DNA of 64,000 nt from assembly GCA_963845185.1 (NCBI GenBank), contig CAWJRG010000005.1, forward strand, positions 32,001 to 96,000, in the 5' to 3' direction. Of this stretch, positions 831 to 56,043 are shown piece after piece. The translations under genes were made by a program, and so were the position numbers. Origin of the DNA: an uncultured bacterium (GTDB lineage: Bacteria; Oederibacteriota; PGYV01; CAWJRG01). The notes beneath the pieces are model-generated. The model saw only the letters and a list, made by a program, of their open reading frames with translations, ran no database searches and had not been told where the DNA came from. How positions within the stretch are numbered: position 1 is the stretch's first letter; each line of letters opens with the position of its first letter.

Positions 831-925
831 CAATACCTCTTGTCTTTAGCAAGCTAAAGACTTGAACGGGTACTTGATAGCGTAATATTTTGTTATCGCC
901 TTCGGCTCAACAAAATAAACGCTAT
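831..925 (-). repeat. Two-hairpin dispersed element, copy A (inverted relative to other copies)
   Basis: Reverse complement reads ATAGCGTTTATTTTGTTGAGCCGAAGGCGATAACAAAATATTACGCTATCAAGTACCCGTTCAAGTCTTTAGCTTGCTAAAGACAAGAGGTATTG, matching copies at 2828, 3397 and 26870. Confidence 0.9.
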
Positions 926-962
926 AAGTTTTCAGTTTTCAATTATCAATGAAAAACCAACC

Positions 963-1685
963 TTAATTAATAATTATTTTATAAGTTACCACGACCTGAC
1001 GATTTTGCGGGTCAATTCCGGCCGTCACAGGAAATGCGGCGTGGATGAAAAGCATGTCCGCCAGGGTATATACCACCGCAACGCCTGTAATAGCGCCGAA
1101 TATTTCATAAGTAGTAAACTTATTTTCGGTTGAAGTTTTTATGCTCATAAGCGAATTATAATTATCCATCGTGGTATTATCAATCTGCGCATAGGTGTTG
1201 TTATAACTATTCACCGCGTTATTATAATTCATGTAATTGGATATTGAAAAGCCGGCCAATACGACATCTGCTCCCAGCACTACCCATTTAAAAGGCGAAT
1301 CGTTTGGCTTGCCCGCAGCCGTGGACATTGCCGCAGGCGGCATTGTAATTTCCTGTGTTTCAGCCTGCGCGCCGCTTGTTGCCTTAATGTTGTCAATCTG
1401 CGACTTTAGACTATCGTCACCCGTAAGCTTATATGCTTTATTAAGATATTGAAGGGCTTTGGCAGGGTTATTTAAAGACATATACGTATAGCCGCCGTAA
1501 GTAAGCGCGTCTGTGTTCTTGGGGTTGATTTTTAACACGGTATCATAGGCAGACGCAGCTTTGCTGTAATTCTGATTTTGATAGCATTTATTGGCGTAAT
1601 CCAACCATTGCTGTTCGAGGGATTTTGATGATATTAAGAATGGGACAAATATAAGCGGGATTAACATCAGCGCGGTTTTTTTCAT
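963..1685 (-). CDS. TPR-containing exported/membrane protein
   Basis: Signal peptide, TPR-like helices (AASAYDTVLKINPKNTDALTYGGYTY...ALQYLNKA), C-terminal hydrophobic segments, GGAGG RBS. Confidence 0.8.
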   Translation of the reverse strand: MKKTALMLIPLIFVPFLISSKSLEQQWLDYANKCYQNQNYSKAASAYDTVLKINPKNTDALTYGGYTYMSLNNPAKALQYLNKAYKLTGDDSLKSQIDNIKATSGAQAETQEITMPPAAMSTAAGKPNDSPFKWVVLGADVVLAGFSISNYMNYNNAVNSYNNTYAQIDNTTMDNYNSLMSIKTSTENKFTTYEIFGAITGVAVVYTLADMLFIHAAFPVTAGIDPQNRQVVVTYKIIIN

Positions 1686-1734
1686 CCCTTTTGTCCTCCT
1701 TGCTTTGTTGTTGTTTGCTTAACTCTTAAACACA

Positions 1735-1763
1735 ATTATACAGCATTAAAGCTGCTTTTACAA
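1735..1763 (-). promoter_or_regulatory. Putative sigma70 promoter of the TPR gene
   Basis: TTGTAA-17 nt-TATAAT on minus strand. Confidence 0.5.
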
Positions 1764-1803
1764 GGTTATTTCGGGAATTGTGTTGTTGGATATGCGCTTT
1801 ATC

Positions 1804-1832
1804 GTACAGACGGCCCTGCGGGTCGTCTGTAC
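1804..1832. repeat. REP-like palindrome (GTAC variant of the GTAG family)
   Basis: GTACAGACGGCCC-TGC-GGGTCGTCTGTAC hairpin. Confidence 0.65.
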
Positions 1833-1867
1833 ATTAACCGCCCTAAATCCCCTTGTTTTCTCCATTC

Positions 1868-1919
1868 GTAGAGAGGCGGCTTGCCATGAACCGAAATGAT
1901 ACATGGCTTGCGGCCTCTC
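1868..1919. repeat. GTAG REP-like palindrome with a 23-bp internal insert
   Basis: GTAGAGAGGCGGCTTG is identical to the left flank of IS copy 1; CTTG is repeated around CCATG...CATGG. Confidence 0.55.
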
Positions 1920-1971
1920 GTTTTTACTGTTAATGGGATTTCTGTAATTCCGTTTGTTTTGCCGGCTAATA

Positions 1972-2229
1972 TTACCTTTTATTGATAATACGCGCTATAA
2001 TAACCGTATTGTTTTTTTCACGCTCAAAATATATAGCCGTTGAATGAATTACACAACAAAAAAAATCAGCCTTTACTCTATAAGTATCTTCATATTCGTC
2101 CATTGGCCTGTTTCGCCTGCTTAATTCGTCATAAATAAACTCATGAACCTGCTTTTTTAACTGGTTATGCAGGGCCGCCAAATCCAGCCCTGCCTGGTCT
2201 GTTATCATTACAAGATTCATTGCAGACAT
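1972..2229 (-). CDS. Divergent RelE/ParE-like putative toxin
   Basis: 85 aa; N-terminal ITDQAGLDLAAL and C-terminal IYFERE...VIIARIINKR pattern typical of the RelE/ParE fold; TAATG overlap with the upstream small gene. Confidence 0.5.
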   Translation of the reverse strand: MSAMNLVMITDQAGLDLAALHNQLKKQVHEFIYDELSRRNRPMDEYEDTYRVKADFFCCVIHSTAIYFEREKNNTVIIARIINKR

Positions 2230-2468
2230 TAAACTTTTAGCCCTATCTTTTTCGCAAAATCGGAATAGCCGGTTGCGGTTTTTTTGCCGTGTTTGATATA
2301 TTCCTCATAAATCATCAGGTCTTCTTTCATGGTTTCACGCTCAATTTCATGGGTTATGGCGTTTCCTAAAAACGCGTATATCTTAATTCCGTGCTTTTCG
2401 CAGAAATCACGCATTAAATCCCTTTTGTCGTCCTCAATCTTCGCTGCAAATGGAACTACTTTAGGCAT
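2229..2468 (-). CDS. Putative RHH-type antitoxin
   Basis: 79 aa; beta-helix-helix-like N-terminus and C-terminal YSDFAKKIGL typical of RelB-like antitoxins; strong AGGAGGTG RBS; coupled to the RelE-like gene. Confidence 0.55.
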   Translation of the reverse strand: MPKVVPFAAKIEDDKRDLMRDFCEKHGIKIYAFLGNAITHEIERETMKEDLMIYEEYIKHGKKTATGYSDFAKKIGLKV

Positions 2469-2624
2469 TTTTAATCACCTCCTGGATTGTGGAGCCCCCC
2501 GCCTTTACAGGCGGAGCGCCTTTAAAAATTCTCACATGCTCCCTCCCCGGAGCGCTATCAATCCCGCCTCAACAACAGGCAGGGTTTTTCGCGGAGCGGG
2601 ATGAATTTCTTTCTTAATATAATA

Positions 2625-2673
2625 ATTGTATCATAAATAATTTTATTATCAAGAACTAAAGTAATACTTTAGT
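2625..2673 (-). promoter_or_regulatory. Promoter and palindromic operator of the putative TA pair
   Basis: TTGATA-16 nt-TACAAT with extended -10 TG; perfect palindrome ACTAAAGTA-A-TACTTTAGT (2655-2673) directly upstream of the -35. Confidence 0.5.
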
Positions 2674-2710
2674 ATCATTTTTACCCGGACAGCATTGGCC
2701 GCGGCGAAAC

Positions 2711-2833
2711 ATGGTCAAAACCTGCGAATGCGAATCCGGCTGCCCCTCCTGCGTCTACTCCCCCAAATGCGGCAACAATAACAACCCGATAGATAAACTT
2801 GGTGCGATTTTGATGCTGGAGGAACTAACATGA
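2711..2833 (+). pseudogene. C-terminal fragment of a DUF1998 (MrfA/SftH/Hrq1-type) helicase Zn-binding domain
   Basis: Manual translation MVKTCECESGCPSCVYSPKCGNNNNPIDKLGAILMLEELT*; matches the CxCxxGCPSC...PKCGN...DKxGA C-terminus of this family; rest of the gene absent. Confidence 0.75.
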
Positions 2834-2926
2834 TAGCGTTTATTTTGTTTAGTCGAAAACGACGACAAAATATTACGCTATCATGTACCCGCTCAAGTCC
2901 GGGCTTCACCCGGACAAGCGGTATTG
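2828..2926 (+). repeat. Two-hairpin dispersed element, copy B
   Basis: ACATGATAGCGT...ACGCTATCATGT stem followed by TACCCGCT-CAA-GTCCGGG-CTTCA-CCCGGAC-AAGCGGTA. Confidence 0.9.
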
Positions 2927-2948
2927 TTTAATTTATTATTTAAAGCCA

Positions 2949-3344
2949 TCATGGGTGGAATTTTTCAATTCTGGTATTACCATCATCCGAAACATATACG
3001 TTCCCGCTTCCATCCACTGCTATTCCATCAGGCCCATTAAACTGCCCGTTACCGCTTCCTGCACTTCCCCATTGTGTTATATATGTCCCACTGTCGCTGA
3101 ATTCCTGAATTCTGCTATTTAAAGTATCTGCAACATACACGTCTCCGCTGCTGTCCGCTGCTATACCCCAAAGATCATAAAACTGCCCGTTGCCAGTCCC
3201 CTGACTTCCCCATTGCGTTATATAACACGGCGGCGAATCAGCCATGGCATGGGAATTTATTATGAAGATAATAAGGATTATGAATATTGGGCTTAAAAAT
3301 TTTTTCAATTGCCGCCTCAGATTCAAATAATTTTTAATTTTCAA
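2949..3344 (-). CDS. Short secreted NHL-repeat protein (about two blades)
   Basis: Signal-like N-terminus; two WGSxGxGNGQF...GIAxD...VYVxD repeats; DNA very similar to 1-240; start codon uncertain. Confidence 0.7.
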   Translation of the reverse strand: MKIKNYLNLRRQLKKFLSPIFIILIIFIINSHAMADSPPCYITQWGSQGTGNGQFYDLWGIAADSSGDVYVADTLNSRIQEFSDSGTYITQWGSAGSGNGQFNGPDGIAVDGSGNVYVSDDGNTRIEKFHP

Positions 3345-3396
3345 TTCTCAATGTTGTCAATTAACTGCTTTTAATTGAAAATTGAAAACTTTTAAC

Positions 3397-3493
3397 TCAT
3401 AGCGTTTGTTTTGTCAAGCCGAAGGCGCTGGCAAAACATTACGCTATGAAGTACCCGTTCAAGTCTTGAGCTTGCTAAAGACAAGCGGTATTG
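3397..3493 (+). repeat. Two-hairpin dispersed element, copy C
   Basis: TCATAGCGT...GCC-GAA-GGC...ACGCTATGA then GTACCCGTTCAAGTC...GACAAGCGGTAT. Confidence 0.9.
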
Positions 3494-3498
3494 GTAAT

Positions 3499-6400
3499 TT
3501 ATTTCACTACCGCCATCTTTCCCCAAGCTTTTTTCTTGTCCTTGCCGTCCGCTGCCTCTATCCTGTAAATATATATTCCGTTTGCCACTGCCCTGCCAGA
3601 TTTATTATTTCTGTCCCAGTATATGCTGTTCATACCCGGCTCGCCCTGCTGCGTTATTTCCCTCACAACCTCGCCGCTTATTGTGTATATCTTTACATTT
3701 ATTTCTGCCGCGTCGCATAACTGATAAATTATATTTGTGCCGTTTGAAAATGGGTTCGGCGAATTTTTATATAAAGTCAGGCAAAGCGGTATTACCGGCG
3801 TAGGCGTTACTGTTATTGTGCATGTTATGCTTGGCGTGGGTGTTGGTGTTTTTGTATTTATATTTGGCGTAGGGCTTATGGTCAAAGTCCACGTCGGGCT
3901 GACTGTGGCTGTTGGAGTCGGCATAATACCCAGGCAATATGCAGGCGGCAAAGAGAACAGGCCAACCTGGTTGCCGCTGCAGGCATAAACGTGAAGGTTT
4001 GACGGGTCTATATTAATGGCAATGCCGCTGCCGCTGTTTAACGGATAGCACTTGTAAAGGAATGTCCATGGAGTTGTGGATTCGTCGAAAACATTCCATC
4101 CCCCGCTCTCGTCTGCCACGTGCACGCGCGTAGAGCCGGGTTCATAGAACATGTAGGTGGGCCTGAACCCGGGCGAAGAATAAACCGTGGCGTCATAGGA
4201 GTAATGCACGCCGTCCGTGGTCGTCCAGCGCACTATGCGGTTGTTCCAGTCATCCGCCACGTAAACTGTATTGCCCTGCGCCAACACGCCAAAAGGATTA
4301 TCAAACTGGTTGGTCCCTGACCCTGTAACCCCTGTTGTCCCGAAAGAGGCCACCTGGGTAAAAGTATTGACCGGATTCTCGTGGTACCGCCGCACCGTGG
4401 CCCGGTCAGTCACATAAACATCACCGCCATTGTCCACGCAAAGTGCCAGCCCGCCCCACAGGTCGCCGCCAAAGGAAGCCATTACAGCGCCTGTTGTGCT
4501 GTTCATTTTCAGTATGCTGCTCCCGTTTATGCAGGCCGCGTACAACGCGCTGTTATCCGGGCTTAATCCAAGCGCAAGCGGGTTAGGAAGGCCGTAAGGT
4601 GTTCCGGTAAATGCCGCGACCCATGCTCCGGTAGCGGCATTGAACTGGTTAATGCGGTTATTGCCAAAATCAGAAACGTAAAGATAGCCATTTCCTGCAG
4701 CAGGCCCGCTGGCGCCGTTGAACTGGCCGTTGCCCGTTCCTGCGCCGTTCCCGTAGGTTTGCACCGGGTTAAAGCAAGTGCAGGGTATGGGAACGGGCGT
4801 GGGCACTGTGCCGGGAAACGGGCTCCAGTAAATAAGTACACGCGACCTGTCAGGGTCGGTCATGAAAAGGTTGCCGTTGCTGTCAAAAACCTCGGAGTAA
4901 GCGCCCATGGACTGGAAATCATTCATGTAAGCCGAAGGCACGTCAAACTGGGTTAAAGGGTTATAAAAACCAACCGGCCAGCGCGAACCGACATAACCCA
5001 TGGTACCAACAGTCATCACCATGTCGTCGCTGCGGAAAGCAGGCTGCCATGGCCCGCACGGGCTCAGGCTCTGGAGGCTAAAGGGGTAACATCCCACAGG
5101 CCCAAAATTCCCGTTCTTTGCATAGACATGGGAAGCCGCTACATTAAAAATGCAGTTAGCCGTTGTGTTTTGCACCGAAGCCGCGCTGTACTCCAGGAGC
5201 CTGGCGTTCCCGTTTGACTCCAGGGAAAAATCCGAAACATATATATTCCCGTGGTGATCCATGGTTACGGCGCCCGGAAGATTCAGGGTATAGGCGCTCT
5301 CCACCCCTCCCTGATTTATGGCATTGGAAACAGCATCAGGTTGCCCCAGGATGATGTCCACCTGCGGGCTTGTAAGCGGGTTCCGGATACGGATAACACG
5401 GTTGTTCATGGTGTCGGCAAGCCAGAGATATTGCCCTGTTGGGTCCACCGCAATACCTTGCGCACTCCATGTTAAAGAGCCTCCCCCAAGCACTGGAACC
5501 GACGAGTTAATGACCGCCGACCCGGTTTGCCATGATACCAGCGGCAGGTTGTAAGTCTCCACCCAGACACCACCGCCGTTTGCATGTAATGTCCAGAGAT
5601 GCGGCTGGGGCGACGCAGAGTCCGTGCAAATACGGCCGAACCAGTCTCCGGCGAAATAAAGATACGTGGATGGAGTCGTGGCTGCAAAGCCGTCCGCGGC
5701 TTTACCGTTGGTCAATCCCAGAGAAGGTTGGTTCGTGTAGTCCAGGTTCCAGTACATCAGCCTGTGGCCGTCTGCGGCGATGAGCTGCGTAATTCCCGAA
5801 CCCGAGCCGATCGCCAGTCCCAGGGCGCCTACAGTATAGTTCGACACATGGTTGCTCATGCCTCCCGCACCCGGGTTTTGTTGCGGTTTGAATACATCCA
5901 CATCCGGCGCATGCGCCTCGCCCGCGTTTGGAAGATTGACAGTATAAATCCCGCCTGAATAATTCAGTCCCGGTATGGGAGCCGGATAGCGCAGTACGTC
6001 TATCATGGGGTCCATGAAGCTCACGAAAACATTTCCTGCCGAATCCACTCCTATACCGCCCCAGTTGTCATGAAAATATTCCGGGCACTGGGAGCAAAGC
6101 GTACTGCTGGGCGGAGATGTGTAATTGGTGAAATCCGGGCCGTCCGCGCTGGTTGGGTCAACTGCTGCTCCGCTGCCCGGATAAAGCTGGTAACGCAGCA
6201 AAAGTTTTAAAGGTGTGGCAGTTGGAGGCGTGGTTGAGAAATCTATATTGTATTCTATGACCTGGGTGTTCAACGAATCAGCCACCCATAAATTGCCTGA
6301 AGGGTCAAACTCAAGACCTGTCGGCCGGTTCAGGCCAAAGGTAATGACACCATCGGGAATTTGGCCGTTATTGTATTGAGGCACCCCATTAACTATAGAA

Positions 6401-7415: not shown

Positions 7416-7533
7416 AATACGGCCTCCTTCTATATAATATATTAATTCCATGTTTGATAATATACTTGTTTTGACAACAAATATCGGAAAAAGTTCCATT
7501 AAAGCTCAGCCCTATCCCTCAATGGGATTTGAA

Positions 7534-8986: not shown

Positions 8987-9090
8987 GTATTCTCCTTGTT
9001 ATGGAAAAAAATTATAAAATATATGCGCAGGGTTGTTAATTGGAAATCGGCTTCTTCAAAGAATATATGCAGTTGTAGAGAGGCGGCTTG

Positions 9091-10704
9091 GAGTCTGTCT
9101 CAAAACTCTTTTAAACGCCTTGCATTGCCTACACTTATCGCGTTTTTTAGCCCCTATCTTTATTATTTCTCTTCTTTTCGATTTGTGGTTCTTTTCTTGT
9201 CAGGTTGCGAACCTTAATTTAACCTTACCTTCCCTCCACAAGGCATACATTGTCTTTATGTTATGGGCGGCGCATATAAAAGACCATTGTGTTTTTACGC
9301 TTTCGATTCCTCTAACATTAAATCTTGTAAAACCAAGTACGTTTTTTATACGTCCCAATAATGGCTCAACTATTGTTTTTCTCTTTCGAAGCTGTTCTTT
9401 TCAGTTATTGACCCTAGCTTCTTCTCTGTATATTGACACTATCTCCTCATACTCATGCTTATTTGCTTCTATTATCCTTCCGGATTTTACCTTGCTGCAT
9501 TCGTATTTATAAATACAATCCCTATGATCCCCGCATCGGTATATCATTGTCTCTTTTCCGTTTTTCTTCTTCCTTATACTGGTATATTCAAGCCTGCCAT
9601 TTTTAGGACATACATATTCGTTTTTTTCTTTGTCGTATTTAAAATGCGCTTTGCCATACGGCCTATCGCTGTCATCCTCCGGCAAGTTAACAATTATATT
9701 CCTTTTTTCTTCTTTGGCTTTTGCCAGTTCTTCCGGTGAATAATACCCTCCATCCGCAAGCGTTACTCCTGATTTTTGTCCGGTATTCGACTCTGCTTTT
9801 TCTATCATATCATTCAGCATGTGAGCATCCGATTCCTTGTTTGTCACATTCTCTGCCACAATTATCTGTTTCTTTGCGTCCACAACAACCTGTGAGTTAT
9901 ATGCCTGTTGCAGTCCTTTACCTCTTGTCATCATGAACCGGCTGTCTCTATCTGTGGGGTTTTCAGTTGTTTTTCCTTCACTTTTCATACGTTCTATATG
10001 TTCTCTTATTACCTGACGCAGTTTCTCCTTTTCCTGCAATTCTTTTGGCATTCCGCACTTACTTTTGCCCTCTTCATCGTCTTGTTCGTCATTTTTCTCA
10101 ATTTCCACCATTATTTTGTCTATTTCTCTGTCTAATTCTTGTATTTTTTTATTCATGTCTTTTATTGTTTTGGTCTTTTCCTTATTTACATCTGCCTGTA
10201 TTTTTGTGCCGTCCACGGCTTGAATTTCAAAACCAACCAAATTGTTGTTTGTTGCCACACGCACCGTCTCCTTCAGTAAAACCCTTATCTGCTCTTTATT
10301 TCCTTTAAAAAATCTCCATAGCGTATTATGGTCGGGATGATTATTCCCGGTTATCCATATCATCCCCATTGAATCGTAAGTCATTTTTTCAACTTTTCTG
10401 CTGCTCTTTTTTCCTTCCAGTATGCCGTACATCCATGCCCCAAGTAAAAGATCTACAAAATATCCCGGTCTTCCGGTTTCTTCTTCCATTTTAAAACCCA
10501 TCTCTTCAAGCGGTAATTCTTCTACGAATTCTACGACAAATCAAGCTAAATGATCTTTTGAAACCCAATCTTCTATTGCCGGTGGCAGTAGATACATTTG
10601 ATTTCTATCGGCTCTTATCGTTGGCATTTGGTTTCTCCTTCGCTAAATTTTGAAACCATTATACCATTTATGTCAAAGAATTAAGAGGCTTTTGAGACAG
10701 ACTC
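9091..10704 (-). mobile_element. IS1182-family element, copy 1 (1614 bp)
   Basis: 15-bp TIRs GAGTCTGTCTCAAAA/TTTTGAGACAGACTC; 4-bp TSD CTTG (9087-9090, 10705-10708); near-identical to 28881..30494. Confidence 0.95.
9200..10627 (-). pseudogene. IS1182 transposase with two nonsense mutations
   Basis: Relative to copy 2: CGA>TGA (10543) and TGG>TGA (9401). Confidence 0.9.
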
Positions 10705-10759
10705 CTTGCCCCTTCTCTACAAATACTTTTACCAAATTTATTTATAATTTATGGTTTTT

Positions 10760-26856: not shown

Positions 26857-26869
26857 AATTGATCTCCTT

Positions 26870-26970
26870 TGATAGCGTTTATTTTGTCAAGCCGAAGGCG
26901 CCGACAAAATATTACGCTATCATGTATCCGATCAAGTCCGAGGCCGCAAAGCCGAGGACAAGCGGTGCTG
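26870..26970 (+). repeat. Two-hairpin dispersed element, copy D
   Basis: TGATAGCGT...GCC-GAA-GGC...ACGCTATCA then GTATCCGATCAA-GTCC-GA-GGC-CGCAAA-GCC-GA-GGAC-AAGCGGTGC; abuts the RBS of the radical SAM gene. Confidence 0.9.
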
Positions 26971-27004: not shown

Positions 27005-27088
27005 TTCACCCTCATCCTGGCTTTCTCCCGTCAAGGGAGAAGGAAAAAACACCCCCTCTCCCCTTGCGGGAGAGGGTAGGGTGAGGGG
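27005..27088. repeat. CCCTC REP/RIME-like inverted doublet
   Basis: Same unit as 13881, in the opposite relative arrangement. Confidence 0.85.
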
Positions 27089-27097
27089 TCTATTCTT

Positions 27098-28833: not shown

Positions 28834-28880
28834 CATCATTCTCCGTTCTTTATTCTTTCTTATTGTAGAGACACGCCATG

Positions 28881-30494
28881 GAGTCTGTCTCAAAACTCTT
28901 TTAAACGCCTTGCATTGCCTACACTTATCGCGTTTTTTAGCCCCTATCTTTATTATTTCTCTTCTTTTCGATTTGTGGTTCTTTTCTTGTCAGGTTGCGA
29001 ACCTTAATTTAACCTTACCTTCCCTCCACAAGGCATACATTGTCTTTATGTTATGGGCGGCGCATATAAAAGACCATTGTGTTTTTACGCTTTCGATTCC
29101 TCTAACACTAAATCTTGTAAAACCAAGTACGTTTTTTATACGTCCCAATAATGGCTCAACTATTGTTTTTCTCTTTCGAAGCTGTTCTTTCCAGTTATTG
29201 ACCCTAGCTTCTTCTCTGTATATTGACACTATCTCCTCATACTCATGCTTATTTGCTTCTATTATCCTTCCGGATTTTACCTTGCTGCATTCGTATTTAT
29301 AAATACAATCCCTATGATCCCCGCATCGGTATATCATTGTCTCTTTTCCGTTTTTCTTCTTCCTTATACTGGTATATTCAAGCCTGCCATTTTTAGGACA
29401 TACATATTCGTTTTTTTCTTTGTCGTATTTAAAATGCGCTTTGCCATACGGCCTATCGCTGTCATCCTCCGGCAAGTTAACAATTATATTCCTTTTTTCT
29501 TCTTTGGCTTTTGCCAGTTCTTCCGGTGAATAATACCCTCCATCCGCAAGCGTTACTCCTGATTTTTGTCCGGTATTCGACTCTGCTTTTTCTATCATAT
29601 CATTCAGCATGTGAGCATCCGATTCCTTGTTTGTCACATTCTCTGCCACAATTATCTGTTTCTTTGCGTCCACAACAACCTGTGAGTTATATGCCTGTTG
29701 CAGTCCTTTACCTCTTGTCATCATGAACCGGCTGTCTCTATCTGTGGGGTTTTCAGTTGTTTTTCCTTCACTTTTCATACGTTCTATATGTTCTCTTATT
29801 ACCTGACGCAGTTTCTCCTTTTCCTGCAATTCTTTTGGCATTCCGCACTTACTTTTGCCCTCTTCATCGTCTTGTTCGTCATTTTTCTCAATTTCCACCA
29901 TTATTTTGTCTATTTCTCTGTCTAATTCTTGTATTTTTTTATTCATGTCTTTTATTGTTTTGGTCTTTTCCTTATTTACATCTGCCTGTATTTTTGTGCC
30001 GTCCACGGCTTGGATTTCAAAACCAACCAAATTGTTGTTTGTTGCCACACGCACCGTCTCCTTCAGTAAAACCCTTATCTGCTCTTTATTTCCTTTAAAA
30101 AATCTCCATAGCGTATTATGGTCGGGATGATTATTCCCGGTTATCCATATCATCCCCATTGAATCGTAAGTCATTTTTTCAACTTTTCTGCTGCTCTTTT
30201 TTCCTTCCAGTATGCCGTACATCCATGCCCCAAGTAAAAGATCTACAAAATATCCCGGTCTTCCGGTTTCTTCTTCCATTTTAAAACCCATCTCTTCAAG
30301 CGGTAATTCTTCTACGAATTCTACGACAAATCGAGCTAAATGATCTTTTGAAACCCAATCTTCTATTGCCGGTGGCAGTAGATACATTTGATTTCTATCG
30401 GCTCTTATCGTTGGCATTTGGTTTCTCCTTCGCTAAATTTTGAAACCATTATACCATTTATGTCAAAGAATTAAGAGGCTTTTGAGACAGACTC
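28881..30494 (-). mobile_element. IS1182-family element, copy 2 (1614 bp, intact)
   Basis: Same 15-bp TIRs; TSD CATG (28877-28880, 30495-30498). Confidence 0.95.
28990..30417 (-). CDS. IS1182-family DDE transposase
   Basis: SSRKVE, PDHNTLWRF, VDGTKIQAD, TDRDSRFM, ADGGY and RKTIVEPLLG motifs. Confidence 0.93.
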   Translation of the reverse strand: MPTIRADRNQMYLLPPAIEDWVSKDHLARFVVEFVEELPLEEMGFKMEEETGRPGYFVDLLLGAWMYGILEGKKSSRKVEKMTYDSMGMIWITGNNHPDHNTLWRFFKGNKEQIRVLLKETVRVATNNNLVGFEIQAVDGTKIQADVNKEKTKTIKDMNKKIQELDREIDKIMVEIEKNDEQDDEEGKSKCGMPKELQEKEKLRQVIREHIERMKSEGKTTENPTDRDSRFMMTRGKGLQQAYNSQVVVDAKKQIIVAENVTNKESDAHMLNDMIEKAESNTGQKSGVTLADGGYYSPEELAKAKEEKRNIIVNLPEDDSDRPYGKAHFKYDKEKNEYVCPKNGRLEYTSIRKKKNGKETMIYRCGDHRDCIYKYECSKVKSGRIIEANKHEYEEIVSIYREEARVNNWKEQLRKRKTIVEPLLGRIKNVLGFTRFSVRGIESVKTQWSFICAAHNIKTMYALWREGKVKLRFAT

Positions 30495-30562
30495 CATGGC
30501 GTGTCTCTACTTTAGTTTATAAAAAATCCTTGCCTCATCCGTTAATATTTGACAACTTTAAC

Positions 30563-33912: not shown

Positions 33913-33927
33913 TTCTTTATCCTCCTA

Positions 33928-34010
33928 TGATGATGTTTATTTTGTAAAGCTACTGCTGCAACAAAATATTACAGCACTCAAGCACCCGGTCAAGTCCCGA
34001 GTTTGCGAGA
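33928..34010 (+). repeat. Two-hairpin dispersed element, copy E (divergent; second hairpin interrupted)
   Basis: TGATGTTTATTTTGT...ACAAAATATTACAGCA then GCACCCGGTCAAGTCC; followed by a 27-bp palindrome at 34011-34037. Confidence 0.7.
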
Positions 34011-34172
34011 GTCAAATAGTCCACTGGACTATTTGACGGGTAGTTTCCATAAGTTATTATCATATAAAAACTGCCCTGAAGATGTGCCTGTTTATTTTAC
34101 AAACTTTTCCGGTGCGGTAAAATATTATTGTTGCCCGCACTCATTCCAGTCAAAAACCGGATATAGCATTAG

Positions 34173-36062: not shown

Positions 36063-36168
36063 TTCTTCTTTCCTCCTTGATGATGTTTATTTTGTAAACC
36101 GTTATCAGTTTTCAATCATCAATAAGAACCTAAATTGAAAATTGACAATTTTTAATTAATAATTATAT

Positions 36169-38608: not shown

Positions 38609-38713
38609 CAAGCAAGAGTAATTTTTGCAAACCGTCAACAGGTGCAGCAAAAATTTTACTCTTGCTTGCACCCGTTCAAGTCCGAGGCTCAAAAGGCCGG
38701 GGACAAGTGGTGC
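38609..38713 (+). repeat. Two-hairpin dispersed element, copy G (second subfamily)
   Basis: CAAGCAAGAGTAA...TTACTCTTGCTTG then GCACCCGTTCAAGTCC-GA-GGCT-CAAAA-GGCC-GG-GGACAAGTGGTGC; abuts the RBS. Confidence 0.88.
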
Positions 38714-43437: not shown

Positions 43438-43469
43438 TTATCTTCCGTCCCATTTTCAATATATTATTT

Positions 43470-44642: not shown

Positions 44643-44819
44643 CCTTCCCCCTCGACGGGGGAAGGCCGGGATGGGGGTGAGGTAGCGGCTAATTCCGTAT
44701 CACTCACGCTAACATCCAATCCCGAAACTTCTTTCCTATATTTCGCATTCCATATTTAAATTATATAGTTGTTGCTGCTACTTCACCCTCACCCTACCCT
44801 CTCCCGTCAAGGGAGAGGG
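44643..44819. repeat. CCCTC REP/RIME-like inverted doublet with extended inner arms
   Basis: Units 44643-44680 and 44782-44819; inner GTAGCGGC/GCTGCTAC arms; homologous to 50836-50964. Confidence 0.85.
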
Positions 44820-44840
44820 ATATGTGTCGGAATGTTTTAA

Positions 44841-46127: not shown

Positions 46128-46129
46128 TC

Positions 46130-46232
46130 TTCACCCTCTCTCTAACTCTCCCCCGTCAAGGGGGAGAGGTTTATTATCTGTCCTAATATAATTTCCCTCT
46201 CCCCGCCGTGGGAGAGGGATAGGGTGAGGGGG
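46130..46232. repeat. CCCTC REP/RIME-like inverted doublet
   Basis: Two inverted hairpin units between accD and folC. Confidence 0.85.
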
Positions 46233-46259
46233 TATATGCATTAATGTTTTCAACTGCCA

Positions 46260-49596: not shown

Positions 49597-50780
49597 TTAA
49601 TCCCCTTTTTATTAATAATATTCCTTACCGTATCGACATCCTTGTCACCCCTGCCCGAAACATTGACTATTACAATGTCTTTCTTTTTCAATTCCATTTT
49701 TTCAAGATATGCCACTGCGTGAGCTGACTCGAGCGCAGGCATTATGCCCTCAAGCTTTGTCAGCGACATGAACGCGTCCAAAGCCTGCTTGTCTGTGACA
49801 TAGTCGTATTTTACCCGTTTTGTATCTTTTAAAAAACTATGCTCAGGCCCTACGCCGGGATAATCAAGGCCTGCGGAAATAGAGTAAGTGTTCATTATCT
49901 GCCCATTTTTGTCCTGAAGAAGATAAGTCTTTGTTCCGTGAAGTACGCCCACTGTGCCTTTAAACAAGGTTGCCGCGTGCATGCCCGAACCTATGCCGAG
50001 CCCGCCTGCCTCGACGCCTATCATTCTAACTTTTTTATATTTAAGAAAAGGATAAAAAAGTCCCATCGCATTTGACCCGCCTCCAACGCATGCCAGCAAA
50101 TAATCAGGCATTTTGCCTTCTGCTTTTATAATCTGCGTCCTTGCTTCCCTGCCTATAACAGACTGGAAATCCCTGACCATCACCGGGTAAGGATGAAATC
50201 CTGAAACACTGCCTATAAGATAATAGGTTGTATCCACATTTTGCAGCCAGTCCCTTATGGCCTCGTTCATGGCATCCTTTAAAGTTTTTGTACCTGATTT
50301 TACTGGGTGGACTTTTGCGCCCAAAAGCTCCATCCTGAATACATTAAGTGCCTGACGGGCAACGTCTTCCTCTCCCATGTAAATCTCGCATTGCATGCCA
50401 AACATTGCCGCTACCGTGGCTGTGGCAACTCCGTGCTGGCCAGCGCCTGTCTCGGCTATTATCCTTTTCTTTTTCATCCTGAGGGCAAGTAAAATCTGGC
50501 CGAGGCAATTATTTATTTTGTGGGAACCTGTATGGTTTAAATCTTCCCTTTTTAAATATATTTTTGCATTGTATTTTTTAGAGAATTGCTCAGCATAATA
50601 TAAGGGAGACGGCCTGCCCGCGTAATTTTTAAGGTAATACTCAAATTCCTGCTTGAACTTTTTATCCTTTTTCGCCTTAAAATATTCCATTTCAAGCTCT
50701 TCTATAACGGCCATCAAAGTTTCAGGCGCGAACCTGCCGCCAAACTGTCCAAAATGCCCTGTTTTGTCAGGAATACTCAT
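49593..50780 (-). CDS. trpB: Tryptophan synthase beta chain
   Basis: [20 protein letters not shown] and GGGSNAMG; real start MSIPD at 50780. Confidence 0.97.
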
Positions 50781-50835
50781 AATGTTATCTCCAATTTCGA
50801 AAAAGTAAATTACCGCTGACTTTGGCAACGGAACC

Positions 50836-50964
50836 CCTTCCCCCTCGATGGGGGAAGGCCGGGATGGGGGTGATGTAGCAGCTGAGACTGTTTCACTCAT
50901 GCTGTTAATACTATTTCGCTGCTGCTTCACCCTCACCTTTATCCTCTCCCATCGAGGGAGAGGA
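50836..50964. repeat. CCCTC REP/RIME-like inverted doublet with extended inner arms
   Basis: Homologous to 44643-44819, including the left flank AAATTAxCGCTxACTTTG. Confidence 0.85.
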
Positions 50965-51007
50965 TACCACCGACTATATACCGGTGGATTATGTTTTCAT
51001 TTAGTAC

Positions 51008-51649
51008 TCAACTTTTAACAGTCTTTCTAATATTTTTAAATAACTTCCTTATCTTTTCCCTGCTTTTTTTGCCCGGACTGGTTTCCACGCCCGAGCCCAC
51101 GTCCACACCGTGCAGACCTTTTGTTTTCAACAGCAAACACACATTGTCAGGCGTTATGCCTCCTGCCACAAAAAAAGGCTTCTTGATTTTTAGATTTTTG
51201 ACAAGGTTCCAGTTGAATGTTCTCCCGGTGCCGCCGTAAGTGTGCCTTAGATATGTGTCAAACATGAACAAATCCACATAGTCTTCATAAATCCTTATTT
51301 TTTTAAGAAGGTTGCTTTTATCCTTAATCCTGACGACTTTTATTACGCCCGCGTTTTTTATTTTTTTTATGTAATTAACGCTCTCATTGCCCGAGAGCTG
51401 CACCATATCAAGCTTTGCCTTTTTTATCACGCTGTTTACTTTCCTTACATCCTCGTTGACAAATACCCCTGCCTTTAATACTTTTTTCGGGATTTTTCTT
51501 ATTATTTTGGCTGCTGCCTCAGGCGTCATTCTCCTTTTACTGTCCGCAAAAATAAATCCGACTATGTCGGCGCCCGACCTGGTCGATAGCAGGGCATCCT
51601 CCAGATTTGTTATCCCGCATATTTTGACTTTAACCATGTTTTGGTGCAT
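51008..51649 (-). CDS. trpF: Phosphoribosylanthranilate isomerase
   Basis: VKICGIT, GGTGRTFNW, AGGI and DVGSGVE motifs. Confidence 0.95.
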   Translation of the reverse strand: MHQNMVKVKICGITNLEDALLSTRSGADIVGFIFADSKRRMTPEAAAKIIRKIPKKVLKAGVFVNEDVRKVNSVIKKAKLDMVQLSGNESVNYIKKIKNAGVIKVVRIKDKSNLLKKIRIYEDYVDLFMFDTYLRHTYGGTGRTFNWNLVKNLKIKKPFFVAGGITPDNVCLLLKTKGLHGVDVGSGVETSPGKKSREKIRKLFKNIRKTVKS

Positions 51650-51657
51650 CCATGGGG

Positions 51658-52455
51658 CTACTCATTACCCGCCCTGTACAGCATATAGTTCACGTATTGT
51701 TTTATATTTTTTTCCTTTGCTTTCATGAGCATCGTGCCGACAAGTACGCCTCTTATCCTGCTGTCTATAAGTACTTCTTCTATATCTTCGGGCTTGTTAA
51801 TTCCGCTCTCGCATATTACTATCCTGTCTTTCGGGATTTGTTTTACCAGCCTTGATACCACTCCAAGATTTGTCTTGAATGTTTTTAAGTCCCGCGTGTT
51901 TATTCCTATAATCTCAGCCCCGCTTCCCACGGCTTTTCTTATATCATCTTTGCTGTGCACCTCAACCACGGGCGTCAAATTAAGAAACCTCGCCTTTTTC
52001 ACAAAATTATAGAGTTCCCTCTTGTCAAGAATCGCCGCGATTAAAAGCACGGCATCTGCCGTCGCTTCCCTGGTTTCATAAATCTGGTATTCGTCTATTA
52101 TAAAATCTTTCCTTAAGACAGGAACCCCTGACATTTTTTTCACGTCTTTGACGTATTCCAGCCTGCCGTCGAAGAATTTCTTGTCGGTAACCACGGATAT
52201 CGCTTTAATGCCAGCGTCCTCGTATATTTTTGCAATCTTGCCTGCGTTGATATTTGTGCGCATGACTCCCTGTGAAGGGGCTTTTTTCTTTATTTCGCCA
52301 ATAACCACAAAAGCATTGTATTCAAAAACATCCCTGAAATTCCTGTTTGCAGGCGTTTTCATTATGCTCTTTAAAAGTTCCTCCTGCGGTACTTTCAACT
52401 TTCTCAATTTGAGCTCGTTTTTCTTGTATTTCACTATCTTGCTTAGAAAACTCAT
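51658..52455 (-). CDS. trpC: Indole-3-glycerol phosphate synthase
   Basis: LRKDFIID, GINTRDL and ESGI motifs. Confidence 0.95.
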   Translation of the reverse strand: MSFLSKIVKYKKNELKLRKLKVPQEELLKSIMKTPANRNFRDVFEYNAFVVIGEIKKKAPSQGVMRTNINAGKIAKIYEDAGIKAISVVTDKKFFDGRLEYVKDVKKMSGVPVLRKDFIIDEYQIYETREATADAVLLIAAILDKRELYNFVKKARFLNLTPVVEVHSKDDIRKAVGSGAEIIGINTRDLKTFKTNLGVVSRLVKQIPKDRIVICESGINKPEDIEEVLIDSRIRGVLVGTMLMKAKEKNIKQYVNYMLYRAGNE

Positions 52456-52471
52456 GTGTTCCTCCTGTGGA

Positions 52472-52555
52472 ATAATTTTCAATTTTCAGTTTTCAATTAT
52501 CAATTAAAAACCATACTTGCCTTTAATTGAAAATTGATAATTCTTAATTGTCAAT
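52472..52555. repeat. Inverted arrays of degenerate 7-nt repeats (TTTTCAA/TTATCAA ... TTGAAAA/TTGATAA)
   Basis: Same family at ~926-952, 3335-3392, 12650-12683 and 36105-36165. Confidence 0.7.
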
Positions 52556-52560
52556 CCTTG

Positions 52561-53574
52561 TTATTTGTTGGAACATTCCCTGAACTGGTTCAGCTTTTCC
52601 ATAACTTTCCCTTCAGTAATCAAGGCGCGCGCCGTTTCCATGCCTTCCTTTGCTTTAGCGACTTTGTCGGCCGTATAAAGCGCGAATCCGCTGTTTATCA
52701 CAATGGCGTCGTAATAAGCGTCTTTCCGTTTGCCTTCAAAAATTTCAACCAGTATCCTGGCGTTTTCTTCAGGGCTGCCCCCGTGTATCGCTGCCAATGG
52801 CTGTTCCTTGATGTCATATAATGACGGTTTAATCCTGTATGTTTTTATGCTTCCGTCTTTCAACTCGGAAATTTTAGTATAGCCCGAGAGTATTACTTCG
52901 TCAATACCGCCTTCGCCGCAGACAACAAGGGCGTGTATTGAACCCAGCCGTTTTAAAACGCCTGCCATTTTCTCTGTTAATTCCTCGGAAAAAACGCCAA
53001 GTAAATGATGGGTGTTTTTCGCCGGGTTTGTCAGGGGGCCAAGAATATTGAATATCGTCCTTATGCCTATTTCTTTCCTTACATTTCCAGCGTATTTCAT
53101 TGCCTTGTGAAAATTCGGCGCGAATAAAAAACCTATGCCGACATTATCAATGCATTTCTTTACCTTGTCCGGAGACAGGTCTATGTTGATGCCAAGCGCT
53201 TTTAAAACATCTGCGCTTCCGCTTTTGCTCGTGGCAGCCCTGTTGCCGTGTTTTGCCACCGCTATGCCTGCCGCGGCCATGACAACAGCCACGCCGGTCG
53301 AAATATTTATTGTCCCCGACGAATCGCCGCCTGTCCCGCATGTGTCAAGAATCACGTCCTTTTCGAGGTCAAACGGCTCGGCTTTTTCGCGCATAACCAC
53401 AGCCGCGGCTGTTATCTCGTCTATTGTCTCGCCCTTGACGCGTAAAGCAGTTAAAAAAGACGCTATCTGAGCGTCGTTTGTTTTCCCGCTCATTATCGCA
53501 TCCATTGCTTCCTTCATTTCATCAAAAGTGAGGTCTTTCCCGTCAACCATTTCTTGAACGAATTTTTTAAGCAT
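52561..53574 (-). CDS. trpD: Anthranilate phosphoribosyltransferase
   Basis: DTCGTGGD, NIST, KHGNR and GSAD motifs. Confidence 0.97.
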   Translation of the reverse strand: MLKKFVQEMVDGKDLTFDEMKEAMDAIMSGKTNDAQIASFLTALRVKGETIDEITAAAVVMREKAEPFDLEKDVILDTCGTGGDSSGTINISTGVAVVMAAAGIAVAKHGNRAATSKSGSADVLKALGINIDLSPDKVKKCIDNVGIGFLFAPNFHKAMKYAGNVRKEIGIRTIFNILGPLTNPAKNTHHLLGVFSEELTEKMAGVLKRLGSIHALVVCGEGGIDEVILSGYTKISELKDGSIKTYRIKPSLYDIKEQPLAAIHGGSPEENARILVEIFEGKRKDAYYDAIVINSGFALYTADKVAKAKEGMETARALITEGKVMEKLNQFRECSNK

Positions 53575-53593
53575 TATACACTCCCGATACTAT

Positions 53594-54361
53594 TTATATT
53601 TCGAACAGCTTTTCAGCGTTCGCCGTGGTTATACGCTCCACTTCCTGCGGCATCATGTTTTTCAGGGCTGCTATTTCGGCCACTACATACTGCAGATAAG
53701 CCGGCTCGTTCCTTTTGCCCCTGAAATTCTGCGGCGCAAGATACGGCGCGTCAGTCTCCAGTACCACATGTTCCAAAGGAATTTTCTTTACAGCTTCCTT
53801 TACCACTCCGGCATTTTTAAAAGTAACAACCCCGCCTATGCCTATGGCAAAACCAAGGTCTATGAATTTTTTCGCAATATCGTATTCCACTCCGAAGCAG
53901 TGCAGCACGCCTTTTTTCTCCACGCCATGCCGCTTGAGTATGGCATAAACATCATCATAAGCCTCCCTGCTGTGTATTGCAACAGGAAGGCCCGTCTCTT
54001 TTGCGAGCAAAAGCATGCGCTCAAAAACTCCTGCCTGAATATCCTTCGGTGATTCGTTTTTGTAATAGTCAAGCCCTATTTCGCCGATTGCCTTTATATT
54101 CCTGCATCTATTCACAATATCTTTTATTTCATTATAAACATCGTCGTTGAAAGCCGTAGCGCAATGCGGATGAAATCCTACCGAAATGTAAATCCCGTCA
54201 GTACAGGCTTCCGCAAACTCCGCGATTTTCCTGTCCTCTTCAATGTCCGCACCGACGTTTATCAGTTTATGCACTCCGGCGTTTTTCGCGCGTTTGAGTA
54301 TTTGGCCCCTGTCCGGATCGTATACGGGGTCGCATAAATGAATATGCGTGTCTATTATCAT
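53594..54361 (-). CDS. tatD: TatD-family DNase
   Basis: DTHIH, GFHPH, GEIGLDY and ETDAPYL motifs. Confidence 0.93.
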   Translation of the reverse strand: MIIDTHIHLCDPVYDPDRGQILKRAKNAGVHKLINVGADIEEDRKIAEFAEACTDGIYISVGFHPHCATAFNDDVYNEIKDIVNRCRNIKAIGEIGLDYYKNESPKDIQAGVFERMLLLAKETGLPVAIHSREAYDDVYAILKRHGVEKKGVLHCFGVEYDIAKKFIDLGFAIGIGGVVTFKNAGVVKEAVKKIPLEHVVLETDAPYLAPQNFRGKRNEPAYLQYVVAEIAALKNMMPQEVERITTANAEKLFEI

Positions 54362-55932
54362 TTGCTTTTCACTTCCTGGTCCTGTATGCGCGGGAAAAGA
54401 GGCGAGCCCTTTTCCACTTTCATGCCGGCTGTAATTTTCCCGAATTCCATTTCTTTATCCAGGTTAATCCGCTGCATGTCCAGGTTCATTTTTAAGTTCT
54501 GTTTCATTATTGCCTGCGCCACCCTGGGCATTACCGGCGCTATGGCCAGGGTAACCAGCCTTATGCTTTCGCAAAGCAAATACATGACGCTGCCCAGCTC
54601 TTTTATCTTGCCCTGCTTTTGCAGGTTCCACGGCGCCTCGTCCTCAATTAATTTATTGGCTGCCCTTACAAGCTCCCACGCGAGCTCCATGGCGCCCGAC
54701 AAATCAAACGCTTCCATTTTCTCCGCGTACTTTTTAAACAGGTCCTGCGACATTTCCATAATCTTGTTCATTTTGCCGTCAAGGCCCGGCATATCGAGCG
54801 CAGGCACCGTGCCCGCGAAATATTTTTCCACCATATTAAGCGACCTGTTTATCAGGTTGCCAAAATCATTTGCCAGGTCGTTGTTATACCTTGTTTTGAC
54901 TGCTTCTTCCGTACATTCGCCGTCCTGCCCGTTTGTGATATGCGCCGCGAAAAAATACCTTATCGGGTCAGTGCCGAAAGCAGTGCCCGCAAAAAGCGGG
55001 TTTGCCGCGAGCTCGACAGGGTCCACAACGTTCCCGCGTGTCTTTGACATTTTCTCCCCGCCGCTTAAAAGGAAACCATGTCCGAATACTTTTTTAGGCA
55101 GGGGCAGTCCGGCGGACATGAGCATTATGGGCCAGATTATACAATGGAACTTTATTATATCCTTGCCTATTATGTGCGCGTCAGCCGGCCAGTATTTGGC
55201 GAACTTTTTGTCATCAGCCGGGAACCCGGAAACCGTTATGTAGTTTATAAGTGCGTCAAACCATACGTAAACCTTATGTTCAATATCAAAGGAAAGCGGT
55301 ATTCCCCACTTCTGGCCGTGCCTTGACACGCTGATATCTTTCAGGCCTTCCTTTATCATATTTACTGTCTCGTTGCGCCTTGTTTCAGGCTCTATAAATC
55401 CCGGGTTGTCCCGTATGTGCTTTAACAGCCTGTCCTGGTATTTTGTGAGCTTGAGGAAATAATTCTCCTCTTTCAGCACGTCAGGCTTTGTCTTATGAAC
55501 CGGGCACTCGCCTTCCACCAAATCGGATTCCATGTAAAAGGCCTCGCATGAGCGGCAGTACCAGCCCTCGTAGTTGCCTTTGTAAATATCACCCGTGTCA
55601 AAGCATCTTTTAAAAAGCTCTGCCACTGCTTTTTTGTGCCTGTCTTCTGTCGTCTGTATGAAATCGTCGTAAGATATTTGGTACTGCGCGTAAACGTCCT
55701 TGAAAACCTTGGCCATTTCATCGCAGTAGGCCTTCGGGTCCTTTCCCTGCTCGACTGCCTTTGTGTAAACGTTTATACTGTGCTCGTCCGTGCCCGCGGA
55801 GAAAAGCACGTCAAAACCGCGCATCCTTTTATAGCGCGCTATTATATCCGCCGTTACCTTCTCGTACGCGTGCCCAATGTGAGGCTTCGAGTTGACGTAA
55901 TCTATGGCTGTTGTTATGAAAAATTTTTTCAA
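54358..55932 (-). CDS. metG: Methionyl-tRNA synthetase (short form, no C-terminal tRNA-binding domain)
   Basis: HIGH, GTDEH, YVWFDAL and KMSKT motifs; probable TTG start at 55932 after GAAGGA. Confidence 0.96.
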   Translation of the reverse strand: MKKFFITTAIDYVNSKPHIGHAYEKVTADIIARYKRMRGFDVLFSAGTDEHSINVYTKAVEQGKDPKAYCDEMAKVFKDVYAQYQISYDDFIQTTEDRHKKAVAELFKRCFDTGDIYKGNYEGWYCRSCEAFYMESDLVEGECPVHKTKPDVLKEENYFLKLTKYQDRLLKHIRDNPGFIEPETRRNETVNMIKEGLKDISVSRHGQKWGIPLSFDIEHKVYVWFDALINYITVSGFPADDKKFAKYWPADAHIIGKDIIKFHCIIWPIMLMSAGLPLPKKVFGHGFLLSGGEKMSKTRGNVVDPVELAANPLFAGTAFGTDPIRYFFAAHITNGQDGECTEEAVKTRYNNDLANDFGNLINRSLNMVEKYFAGTVPALDMPGLDGKMNKIMEMSQDLFKKYAEKMEAFDLSGAMELAWELVRAANKLIEDEAPWNLQKQGKIKELGSVMYLLCESIRLVTLAIAPVMPRVAQAIMKQNLKMNLDMQRINLDKEMEFGKITAGMKVEKGSPLFPRIQDQEVKSK

Positions 55933-55943
55933 TGTTTTTCCTT

Positions 55944-56043
55944 CAAGCATGAGTATTTTTTGCAAGCCTTATGGGCGCAGCAAAATATTACTCTTGCTTG
56001 CACCCGTTCCTATCCAAGGCTGCAAGGCCGAAGACAAGTGGTG
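55944..56043 (+). repeat. Two-hairpin dispersed element, copy H (second subfamily)
   Basis: CAAGCATGAGTA...TACTCTTGCTTG then GCACCCGTTCC...GGCT-GCAA-GGCC...GACAAGTGGTG; abuts the metG RBS. Confidence 0.85.

Follow-up and report, generated by a model that had tools for sequence, protein, structure and literature searches.

The 64-kb stretch of DNA analysed here (the window) comes from the genome of an uncultured Oederibacteriota bacterium (G000; other G and L labels denote genomes and loci of its relatives) and contains short intergenic sequences that fold into two hairpins, which raises the question of what kind of element they are, whether they move and how they come to lie where they do. 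The preliminary description listed seven copies and a fragment (36078-36098); the seven align at the places given and score as one family, and the fragment is present with slightly wider limits (Table 1). Copy A, taken there to be sense to its neighbouring genes, proved to be so. Copy E is real but is not a plain short copy: another small element, M2, interrupts its hairpin 2, and behind M2 lies a further, decayed copy. By eye, 25 of the 29 oriented copies of M2 lie in or on the element.

Table 1. Copies of the double-hairpin element and related features in the window (SD, Shine-Dalgarno sequence; M2 and M3, other small repeats; gene strand in brackets)
Feature	Position	Family-score match	Strand	Context
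Copy A, full	833..928	832-925	-	sense to neighbouring genes; not at SD; left flank is M3
Copy B, full	2830..2924	2832-2925	+	not at SD; left flank is that of the paralogous copy G000:C5:29042
Copy C, full	3396..3491	3399-3492	+	left flank is M3
Copy D, full	26869..26968	26871-26969	+	adjoins SD of radical-SAM gene, start 26856 (minus)
Copy E, hairpin 1 and part of hairpin 2	33927..34010	33929-34020	+	adjoins SD of NHL-repeat gene, start 33912 (minus)
M2, inside hairpin 2 of copy E	34011..34076		+	27-nt palindrome and hairpin
Decayed further copy behind M2	34088..34158		+	E 0.0019
Left-end remnant	36077..36101		+	adjoins SD of gene starting 36062 (minus); M3 next
Copy F, full	38610..38713	38615-38713	+	adjoins SD of DUF2298 gene, start 38598 (minus)
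Copy G, full	55945..56044	55949-56043	+	weak SD of methionyl-tRNA synthetase gene (minus)
Empty paralogous target site in host repeat X	2536..2559		+	insertion after 2547 or 2546

The genome-wide copy-number scan that the preliminary description had called for found 190 copies of this gene-less repeat of about 95 bases, not just the local few, and none in a reversed-genome control. Tandem arrays also occur. The copies fall into many subfamilies and are dispersed over 8 contigs, before housekeeping genes and in intact operon junctions, unlike integron attC sites, which bound gene cassettes arrayed with an integron integrase. Its boundaries, taken from empty/filled site pairs and from the alignment, enclose a sequence too short to code and show no terminal inverted repeats; both hairpins extend to the very ends. 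It contains neither an SD nor an ATG, both being host sequence that persists at empty sites, and an internal sigma-70 promoter was rejected, the single match being weak, located in copy D and close to chance level. As the preliminary description supposed, it is not a known Rfam family: a search of the window against Rfam 15 gave no match at gathering score, only sub-threshold miRNA-type hairpin matches around copy D. A pattern scan of a genome collection yielded a single match, without the fold, and a viral scan two, both without hairpin 1.

The paired structure is kept among the copies. In the alignment 89.7% of the cells are paired and 27 of the 36 pairs have changed on both sides; none of 500 shuffles was as good, and slid controls reached 37-46% pairing. 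Single copies (four, on both strands) gave fold z-scores of -4.9 to -10.5, equalled by none of 200 shuffles. The sequence confirms the compensatory arms reported earlier, together with the CAA internal loop, the GYACC/GGTRY base and, in copies A, C and D, the GCC-GAA-GGC cap. GAA loops do occur but are a minority cap (14/107), a 7-nt loop being more frequent, and GNA triloops were for this reason dropped as proof of DNA folding. Other recurrent features are a T/TT bulge in the stem (98/107 copies), an AA/GCN internal loop in hairpin 1 (47/107) and GA/GA or AA/GA in long hairpin 2 apices (39/58); the asymmetric loops are conserved across the order. Hairpin 1 is untagged and hairpin 2 has a paired RYAC at its foot; neither shows an unpaired GTAG or CGTC there.

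The claim that G-T wobbles are confined to one strand is true of hairpin 2 (93 G-T versus 11 A-C, over 45 different column patterns) but not of hairpin 1, which is nearly strand-symmetric (65 versus 47) and can also fold in the mRNA, ending just before the SD. By folding energy the strand proposed earlier is the better one in 89/128 cases with RNA parameters and in 71/128 with DNA parameters, so that the strands are barely separated. The favoured-fold strand is C-rich and is the leading-strand template in 168/182 copies; it is antisense to the host mRNA in G000 and sense in the relatives. Orientation tracks the gene and not the fork (7/90 SD copies are head-on, p 0.07 against 13.6%), and replication-strand targeting was accordingly rejected.

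The element is mobile, and its predominant landing site at the exact edge of the SD, absent from the preliminary description, is its most striking property. The left end lies 1-3 nt from CTCC, the complement of the SD core, in 78/82 copies and at exactly 2 nt in 59/82, while its distance to the ATG varies from 8 to 17; the left junction is thus fixed to the SD and not to the start codon. CTCC sites are occupied in 75/895 cases where a start codon lies downstream and in 2/533 where none does (about 24-fold), a difference that a target of 4-5 nt alone cannot produce. Altogether 81/1423 (about 6%) of the G000 start sites with a GGAG core carry the element. Other repeats are not at CTCC (motif matches at most 4 nt away, 0/78 and 2/59). 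Open-access word searches, which do not prove absence, retrieved no paper describing small elements that insert 5' of ribosome-binding sites.

Empty sites, also sought at the suggestion of the preliminary description, document the insertions. Host repeat X, which has no start codon, is filled at G000:C6:76379 and C10:198789 and empty at more than 20 loci. A short intergenic site, G000:C1:292177, is empty in this genome and filled in L197 with both flanks intact. Such pairs, four of them clean, indicate precise insertion without target duplication beyond one ambiguous base; the base after CTCC matches the base after the right end in only 20/64 parsed cases (Y/N classes). Leader length is equal in filled and empty pairs, so the idea that insertion deletes adjacent DNA as far as the next constrained sequence was rejected. 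Comparison of G000:C9:686506 with L234 reveals an older copy separated from the SD by a newer one, a re-insertion at an occupied site. Copy number, two-sided pair changes and empty/filled sites together bear out the earlier proposal that the structure is kept and that the element spreads. They also refute decayed local duplications or chance palindromes, a reading now hardly credible: copies A and B do belong to duplicated segments (with C9:656519 and C5:29042, respectively), but the number, contig spread and subfamilies of the copies, the precise empty sites and the order-wide asymmetric loops stand against it.

In sister genomes the same fold occurs on the sense strand, just behind intrinsic terminators, and the left target is a T-tract instead of CTCC. 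In family f10 the junction lies 5-10 nt past the terminator stem in 16/20 chosen loci, and in L083 it lies directly behind a tRNA CCA. Some sites recur between genomes: five share the one after fabG and four the one before radC. Between congeners 15-16/28 orthologous sites are empty (about half differ), one site is occupied by three different subfamilies in three genomes, and the relatives' sites examined are empty in G000 in 7/7 cases.

The best explanation, to which we give about an even chance, is that of an orphan PATE/REP-like single-stranded-DNA element moved by a HUH (Y1/RAYT-type) transposase in trans. The gene-less element inserts precisely, with its left end leading, against the 5' edge of SD sites here and behind terminators in the sister genomes; it would be cut and re-joined as folded single-stranded DNA. 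Copy number, paired structure, boundaries, landing sites, re-insertion and the lack of terminal inverted repeats and target duplication are direct observations; the single-stranded substrate is suggested by the strand-specific G-T pairs and purine-rich loops of hairpin 2 and by its strand being antisense to mRNA here and sense in the relatives. A HUH enzyme is likely by analogy with the PATE/IS200-IS605 pattern, and from CTCC here and the T-tract in the relatives we infer a pyrimidine-rich left target. On the other hand, the near symmetry of hairpin 1 and the terminal, not subterminal, position of both hairpins count against the HUH reading, and the old site after fabG in the relatives has no pyrimidine tract.

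The comparisons that follow draw on excerpts of the cited papers. PATEs are described there as having no inverted terminal repeats, near-terminal palindromes, no target duplication and a 5' target of 4-6 bp, and smaller repeats are said to invade them within the palindromes (PMC3119063). The element resembles PATEs and IS200/IS605 in being gene-less, in its two palindromes without terminal inverted repeats or target duplication, in its short left target and heterogeneous subfamilies, and M2 likewise invades its palindromes. It differs in that no IS605-type parent was found, its hairpins reach the ends, a 4-6 nt left target is insufficient and start-codon context is needed, and the target class varies by lineage. 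The lagging-strand template is the target of IS608 and ISDra2 (PMC6006769); the element, folding on the leading-strand template, has no preference for it. Group 2 REP/BIME-RAYT systems share hundreds of intergenic copies, irregular stems and a strand-specific fold (PMC8266576, PMC3733652), as well as composites of two hairpins and tandem arrays. TnpA-REP of E. coli needs an AA-GC mismatch (PMC8266576), which the AA/GCN loop of hairpin 1 resembles. Unlike REPs as described in these excerpts, the element has no unpaired GTAG/CGTC tag, consists of two unlike hairpins in the same orientation, is not beside RAYT genes and is fixed to the SD, whereas REPs are fixed to gene 3' ends. For REPs and CGTC repeats, too, the rules of target choice have yet to be settled (PMC8266576, PMC3733652).

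The preliminary description had proposed a HUH/RAYT substrate, which is still the likeliest mechanism, and had suggested a scan for an adjacent cognate nuclease or transposase gene, but none was found beside any copy. Two RAYT-like genes were detected in G000 by motif scan; each has its own, different GTAG repeats and no copy of the element within 6 kb. Y1_Tnp family searches for an IS200-type TnpA and searches for TnpB gave no match in G000; the RRXRR search gave none either, but its control was silent too. Run over 33 loci, of which 30 came from the 62 Y1 matches of the order and three were others, the element model detected no true copy and gave only weak GC-hairpin matches, at L125. When 1000 ORFs around 329 sites were clustered, no transposase-like group was seen by eye in the 45 largest clusters, and the genes between close copies are ordinary. 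The IS families resident in G000, one IS110 besides DDE types, were rejected as movers, their targets being different. G000 also has three tyrosine recombinases.

RNA-end-guided or RNA-primed insertion, in which the left end would be joined, or synthesis primed, wherever the 3' end of an RNA is base-paired to nucleic acid, and a reverse transcriptase (RT), for example a group II intron protein, would make the copy, appears unlikely. The candidate ends are the 16S anti-SD on the start site, the terminator U-tract and the tRNA CCA. The junction at the end of the anti-SD match, the need for a start codon, the f10 and L083 junctions, six intact RT-coding introns in G000 and an excess by eye of left-end-only remnants at an SD (about 10, versus about 4 right-only pieces) agree with it. 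Against it, an RT was found in only 2/24 genomes of the order, the favoured fold lies on the would-be cDNA strand and not on the template RNA, both flanks are intact, and the copies in repeat X have no start codon. In these genomes specialised group II introns use the same two classes of landing site, IIC targeting terminators and IIB1 start or stop codons (PMC12584367, in part), but G000 has both intron types, so that the parallel does not discriminate. The element, at 95 nt, has no intron domains or RT gene, and intron guidance was rejected because the resident intron's target is not enriched at its sites (ATGA in 44/81 versus 621/1342, p 0.17; TATGA, p 1.0). That the element represents a new class of tiny mobile element finding its landing sites through RNA 3' ends, with the anti-SD of 16S rRNA, paired at a start site, as possible guide in this genus and, in sister lineages, the U-tract of terminators and the CCA of tRNAs, is quite improbable. 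The mobile structured RNA of the preliminary description is weakened in G000, since the strand with the favoured fold begins at the edge of the anti-SD and runs antisense to the host mRNA.

A selected cis-regulatory structure of leaders and 3' ends, spread by recombination or gene conversion and kept for mRNA stability or translation tuning, seems very doubtful. Neisseria REP2 and Borrelia IR-A/IR-B are likewise two stem-loops without terminal inverted repeats, immediately upstream of unrelated genes, and REP2 carries a promoter, an RBS and an ATG of its own (PMC3184786, as excerpted). The mRNA fold of hairpin 1 before the SD and the sites common to several genomes would suit such a role, as would a TATAAT-like box after the right end (11/30 f10 matches versus 7/106 in G000). 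The element, however, uses the host SD and ATG and, unlike REP2, folds best on the other strand, its wobble pairs favouring the non-mRNA strand in G000; the target genes are unrelated, and the differences in sites and subfamilies between genomes described above also speak against it.

It is highly doubtful that the hairpins are substrates of a small Ssn-like GIY-YIG nuclease specific for single-stranded DNA, whose cuts at the hairpin foot would seed recombination that spreads the repeat. Ssn nucleases cut single-stranded DNA beside cognate hairpin repeats (NTS/SRM) in a strand-specific manner (PMC11893778, in part), and the hairpins that flank small GIY-YIG genes in G014, G020 and G021 have an apex (GAGGAGC-N3-4-GCGACGA) identical to the hairpin 1 apex of the G014 copies. 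However, 0/131 copies fit the published SRM pattern, the element is three times longer, and 23 GIY-YIG/DUF559 loci contain no copy. The only GIY-YIG genes of G000 are one of 91 aa without flanking repeats and one of 614 aa, and Ssn is not known to integrate DNA.

The element remodels 5' leaders throughout the genome without touching coding sequence or SD. One lineage has it at functional start sites and another at terminators, which makes target choice by gene-less repeats a question that can be tested. Were targeting by RNA 3' ends true, this would be the first case of a DNA element guided by ribosomes or paused transcription complexes, one whose target preference switches between lineages while its fold is kept. 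The enzyme, if found, may allow short DNA to be written at start sites.

Profile searches gave evidence of a high copy number for the double-hairpin element in the host genome. The positions of the seven copies and one fragment reported for the window in the preliminary description were confirmed, and the genome-wide scan that it had proposed returned 190 matches at E ≤ 0.01 (iterated profile; 3.5 Mb, 99% complete), 133 of them near full length, while the same profile gave no match in the reversed genome. The 162 loci comprise 143 single, 14 double and 4 triple arrangements and one of seven copies. The view that this is not a known structured RNA was upheld for the window, where Rfam gave no gathering-score match and, around copy D, nothing beyond sub-threshold hairpin matches.

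Compensatory changes in the arms, claimed earlier from few copies, were recovered in 40 chosen diverse copies (39 from the host, one from the relative G001), in which 89.7% of cells are paired and 27 of 36 pairs vary on both sides, counts that kinship among copies inflates; none of 500 shuffles was as good, and slid-alignment controls gave 37–46% paired. Hairpins were parsed in 107 copies, 21 of the 128 unique copies failing to parse. Hairpin 1 consists of two 9-bp stem segments separated by a T/TT bulge (98/107), followed by a 2x3 loop, which is AA/GCN in 47/107, and by a short cap. The base of hairpin 2 is 5+3 bp; a CAA/A loop and then 4 bp follow, with a GA/GA or AA/GA pair in 39 of the 58 long apices. 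The strand-specific fold proposed earlier holds for half of the element: hairpin 2 shows 93 G-T against 11 A-C wobbles spread over 45 column patterns, whereas in hairpin 1 the asymmetry is weak (65 versus 47), and folding energies barely tell the strands apart. A host subfamily carries hairpin 1 inverted with respect to hairpin 2, with a third small hairpin in front (see table), which suggests that hairpin 1 is a separable module. In three relatives (L002, L005 and L007, from G021, G003 and G001), a lone hairpin 1 adjoins a stop codon from the opposite strand, in tandem and next to an extra copy of the 3' part of that gene.

In the host, the element lies mostly against the Shine-Dalgarno (SD) sequence of genes on the opposite strand. 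By crude gene calls, both flanking genes are on the opposite strand in 139 of 184 matches, and a start codon stands 9–18 nt from the left end in 85 of 153 left-intact copies. An SD is abutted by 90 of 134 parsed left ends; the outermost pair is 2 nt from CTCC, the complement of the SD core, in 59 of 82 copies and 1–3 nt in 78, with the distance to ATG scattered between 8 and 17 nt. The 1–3 spacer bases track subfamily (CT in 10/11 of one, TT in 8/10 of another), and the junction is therefore placed at the end of CCTCC or within one base of it. Of the GGAG sites that have a start codon and an open frame behind them, 81 of 1423 carry the element, compared with 6/1888 non-coding sites lacking these and 7/13492 coding ones; in unique AT-rich contexts only, the figures are 75/895 versus 2/533 (odds ratio 24, p 2e-13). 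Other host repeat families lie next to CTCC in 0/78, 0/10 and 2/59 matches to their motifs, where a palindrome counts once per strand. In 168 of 182 copies, the strand whose fold was described earlier is the C-rich one that serves as template for the leading strand; 86% of host genes, however, are co-oriented, and of the 14 exceptional copies 7 lie against the SD of a head-on gene (p 0.07), so that copies take their orientation from the gene. Among 145 right flanks of host copies, 30 open in the manner of a second left end, and nine open with the outer arms collapsed into a mini-palindrome.

Insertion could be followed at empty and filled sites. Filled repeat X, a host repeat that also occurs empty, has lost nothing, and at most one base is shared at the insertion; in the paralogous pair C9:213409/C9:361326 the junction agrees to within one base. 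A metagenome scan gave 93 loci, the analysis covering the 80 listed, many from congeners with gene identity of 75–90%. For 51 relatives' copies compared with the host, an orthologous flank was present for 28 and absent for 23; the 28 sites were called by script as 16 empty and 12 filled, one 'empty' being a copy split by a second small element, M2. Locus L197 against C1:292177 shows a clean insertion within a very short junction, C10:854387 carries a different subfamily in each of three genomes, and at C9:686506 a newer copy sits between the SD and an older one that stands alone in L234. By eye, tandem loci usually have a damaged left arm in the distal copy, and about 10 left-end-only remnants at SDs and about four hairpin-2-only pieces were found, automatic classes being too strict. 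M2 (63–71 nt) comprises a 27-nt palindrome and a hairpin; it has inserted mostly into arms or loops of the element, in or on which 25 of 29 copies lie (by eye), as SMR-A does in PATEs.

Coordinates of features in the window and in the host genome (G000)
Feature	Location	Remark
Repeat X, empty	window 2536-2559	repeat 2536-2590
Repeat X, filled	C6:76379, C10:198789
Small antitoxin-like ORF	window 2232-2468	by repeat X; one of a six-member family beside element copies
M2	window 34011-34076	28 other places
Inverted-hairpin-1 copies	C9:934956, C10:695749, C9:137908, C10:122651, C9:17947, C9:19060, C5:749322, C5:740377
RAYT-like genes	C1:234017-234622, C5:416746-417519	L020, L021
Group II introns	C9:700382, C9:812638, C9:846479, C10:384782, C10:831832, C11:63009, C1:269459	L011-L016
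DDE (DUF772) insertion sequence	window 9073-10705, 28860-30510	15 copies; target GTAG-type REPs
Long G/C-rich hairpin repeat	window 27008-27089	type flanking DUF559 gene at C10:215445
ORF-less IIC-type intron relic	C10:404965	behind terminator; L287

Half of the genomes searched in the order (12 of 24) contain matches to the covariance model; a search of 75 further genomes from the phylum, with stricter filters, gave none. G001 holds two copies of the SD type. In family f10 (G014, with at least 18 copies, G023, G019 and G020), sense-strand copies stand directly behind hairpin-plus-T-tract terminators, the left end lying 5–10 nt past the stem in 16 of 20 loci, which were chosen out of 32 as terminator type and include repeated orthologous sites. 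Another copy stands behind a tRNA CCA (L083), and after fabG in five genomes a copy follows the stop codon, its outer pairs varying along with that codon. Seven sites of these kinds checked in the host were all empty. In L106 the left arm was later split by an ORF-less IIC-type intron; a relic of such an intron also lies behind a terminator in G014 (C16:53297, L275).

The cognate nuclease or transposase gene envisaged earlier was not found adjoining copies of the element. The host's two RAYT-like genes, which the family search did not pick up, come with GTAG repeats of their own around and within the reading frame. Small GIY-YIG genes of G014, G020 and G021 have flanking hairpins that share their apex with hairpin 1 of G014, and such repeat-flanked genes are a lead towards Ssn-like nucleases (excerpts of PMC11893778); the published SRM repeat pattern of these nucleases matches 0 of 131 element copies, and the host has no repeat-flanked gene of that kind. 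In relatives, small GIY-YIG genes flanked by GA-GC-loop-GC-GA hairpin repeats (L158, L159, L160, L153, L171, L148, L172) are candidate Ssn-like pairs. Hairpin repeats of other kinds are the targets of an IS110 family and of a second family of DUF772 type.

That the element requires a start codon here, and uses terminators instead in relatives, leaves room for insertion guided by RNA ends; as a class of mechanism this seems unlikely, and in its boldest form more doubtful still. Host group II introns (six near-identical, intact and RT-coding, one degenerate) insert one base past the start codon in GGAGG-N5-ATGA, domain VI supplying its own SD and ATG at the 3' end, and introns targeting start or stop codons are an already described kind (excerpts of PMC12584367); a variant guided by them is disfavored, as element sites are not enriched for SD-N5-ATGA and, among 24 genomes from the order, RT genes are present in 2.

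A literature word search for a small element of this kind found no matching paper. The nearest analogue by position is REP2, which, unlike the element, brings its own RBS and ATG (excerpts of PMC3184786). As PATEs are described in parts of PMC3119063, the element resembles them in lacking inverted ends and duplication, in inserting 3' of a short pyrimidine-rich target, and in its two irregular hairpins with one strand favored, which the smaller M2 invades. It differs in that the short target is not sufficient and the strand is not the lagging-strand template, and it is therefore regarded as behaving like a PATE and not classed as one. Because of this pattern, together with an AA/GC-type loop reminiscent of E. 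coli REPs (as presented in part of PMC8266576), the element may, with roughly even probability, be an orphan single-stranded-DNA element moved in trans by a HUH enzyme.
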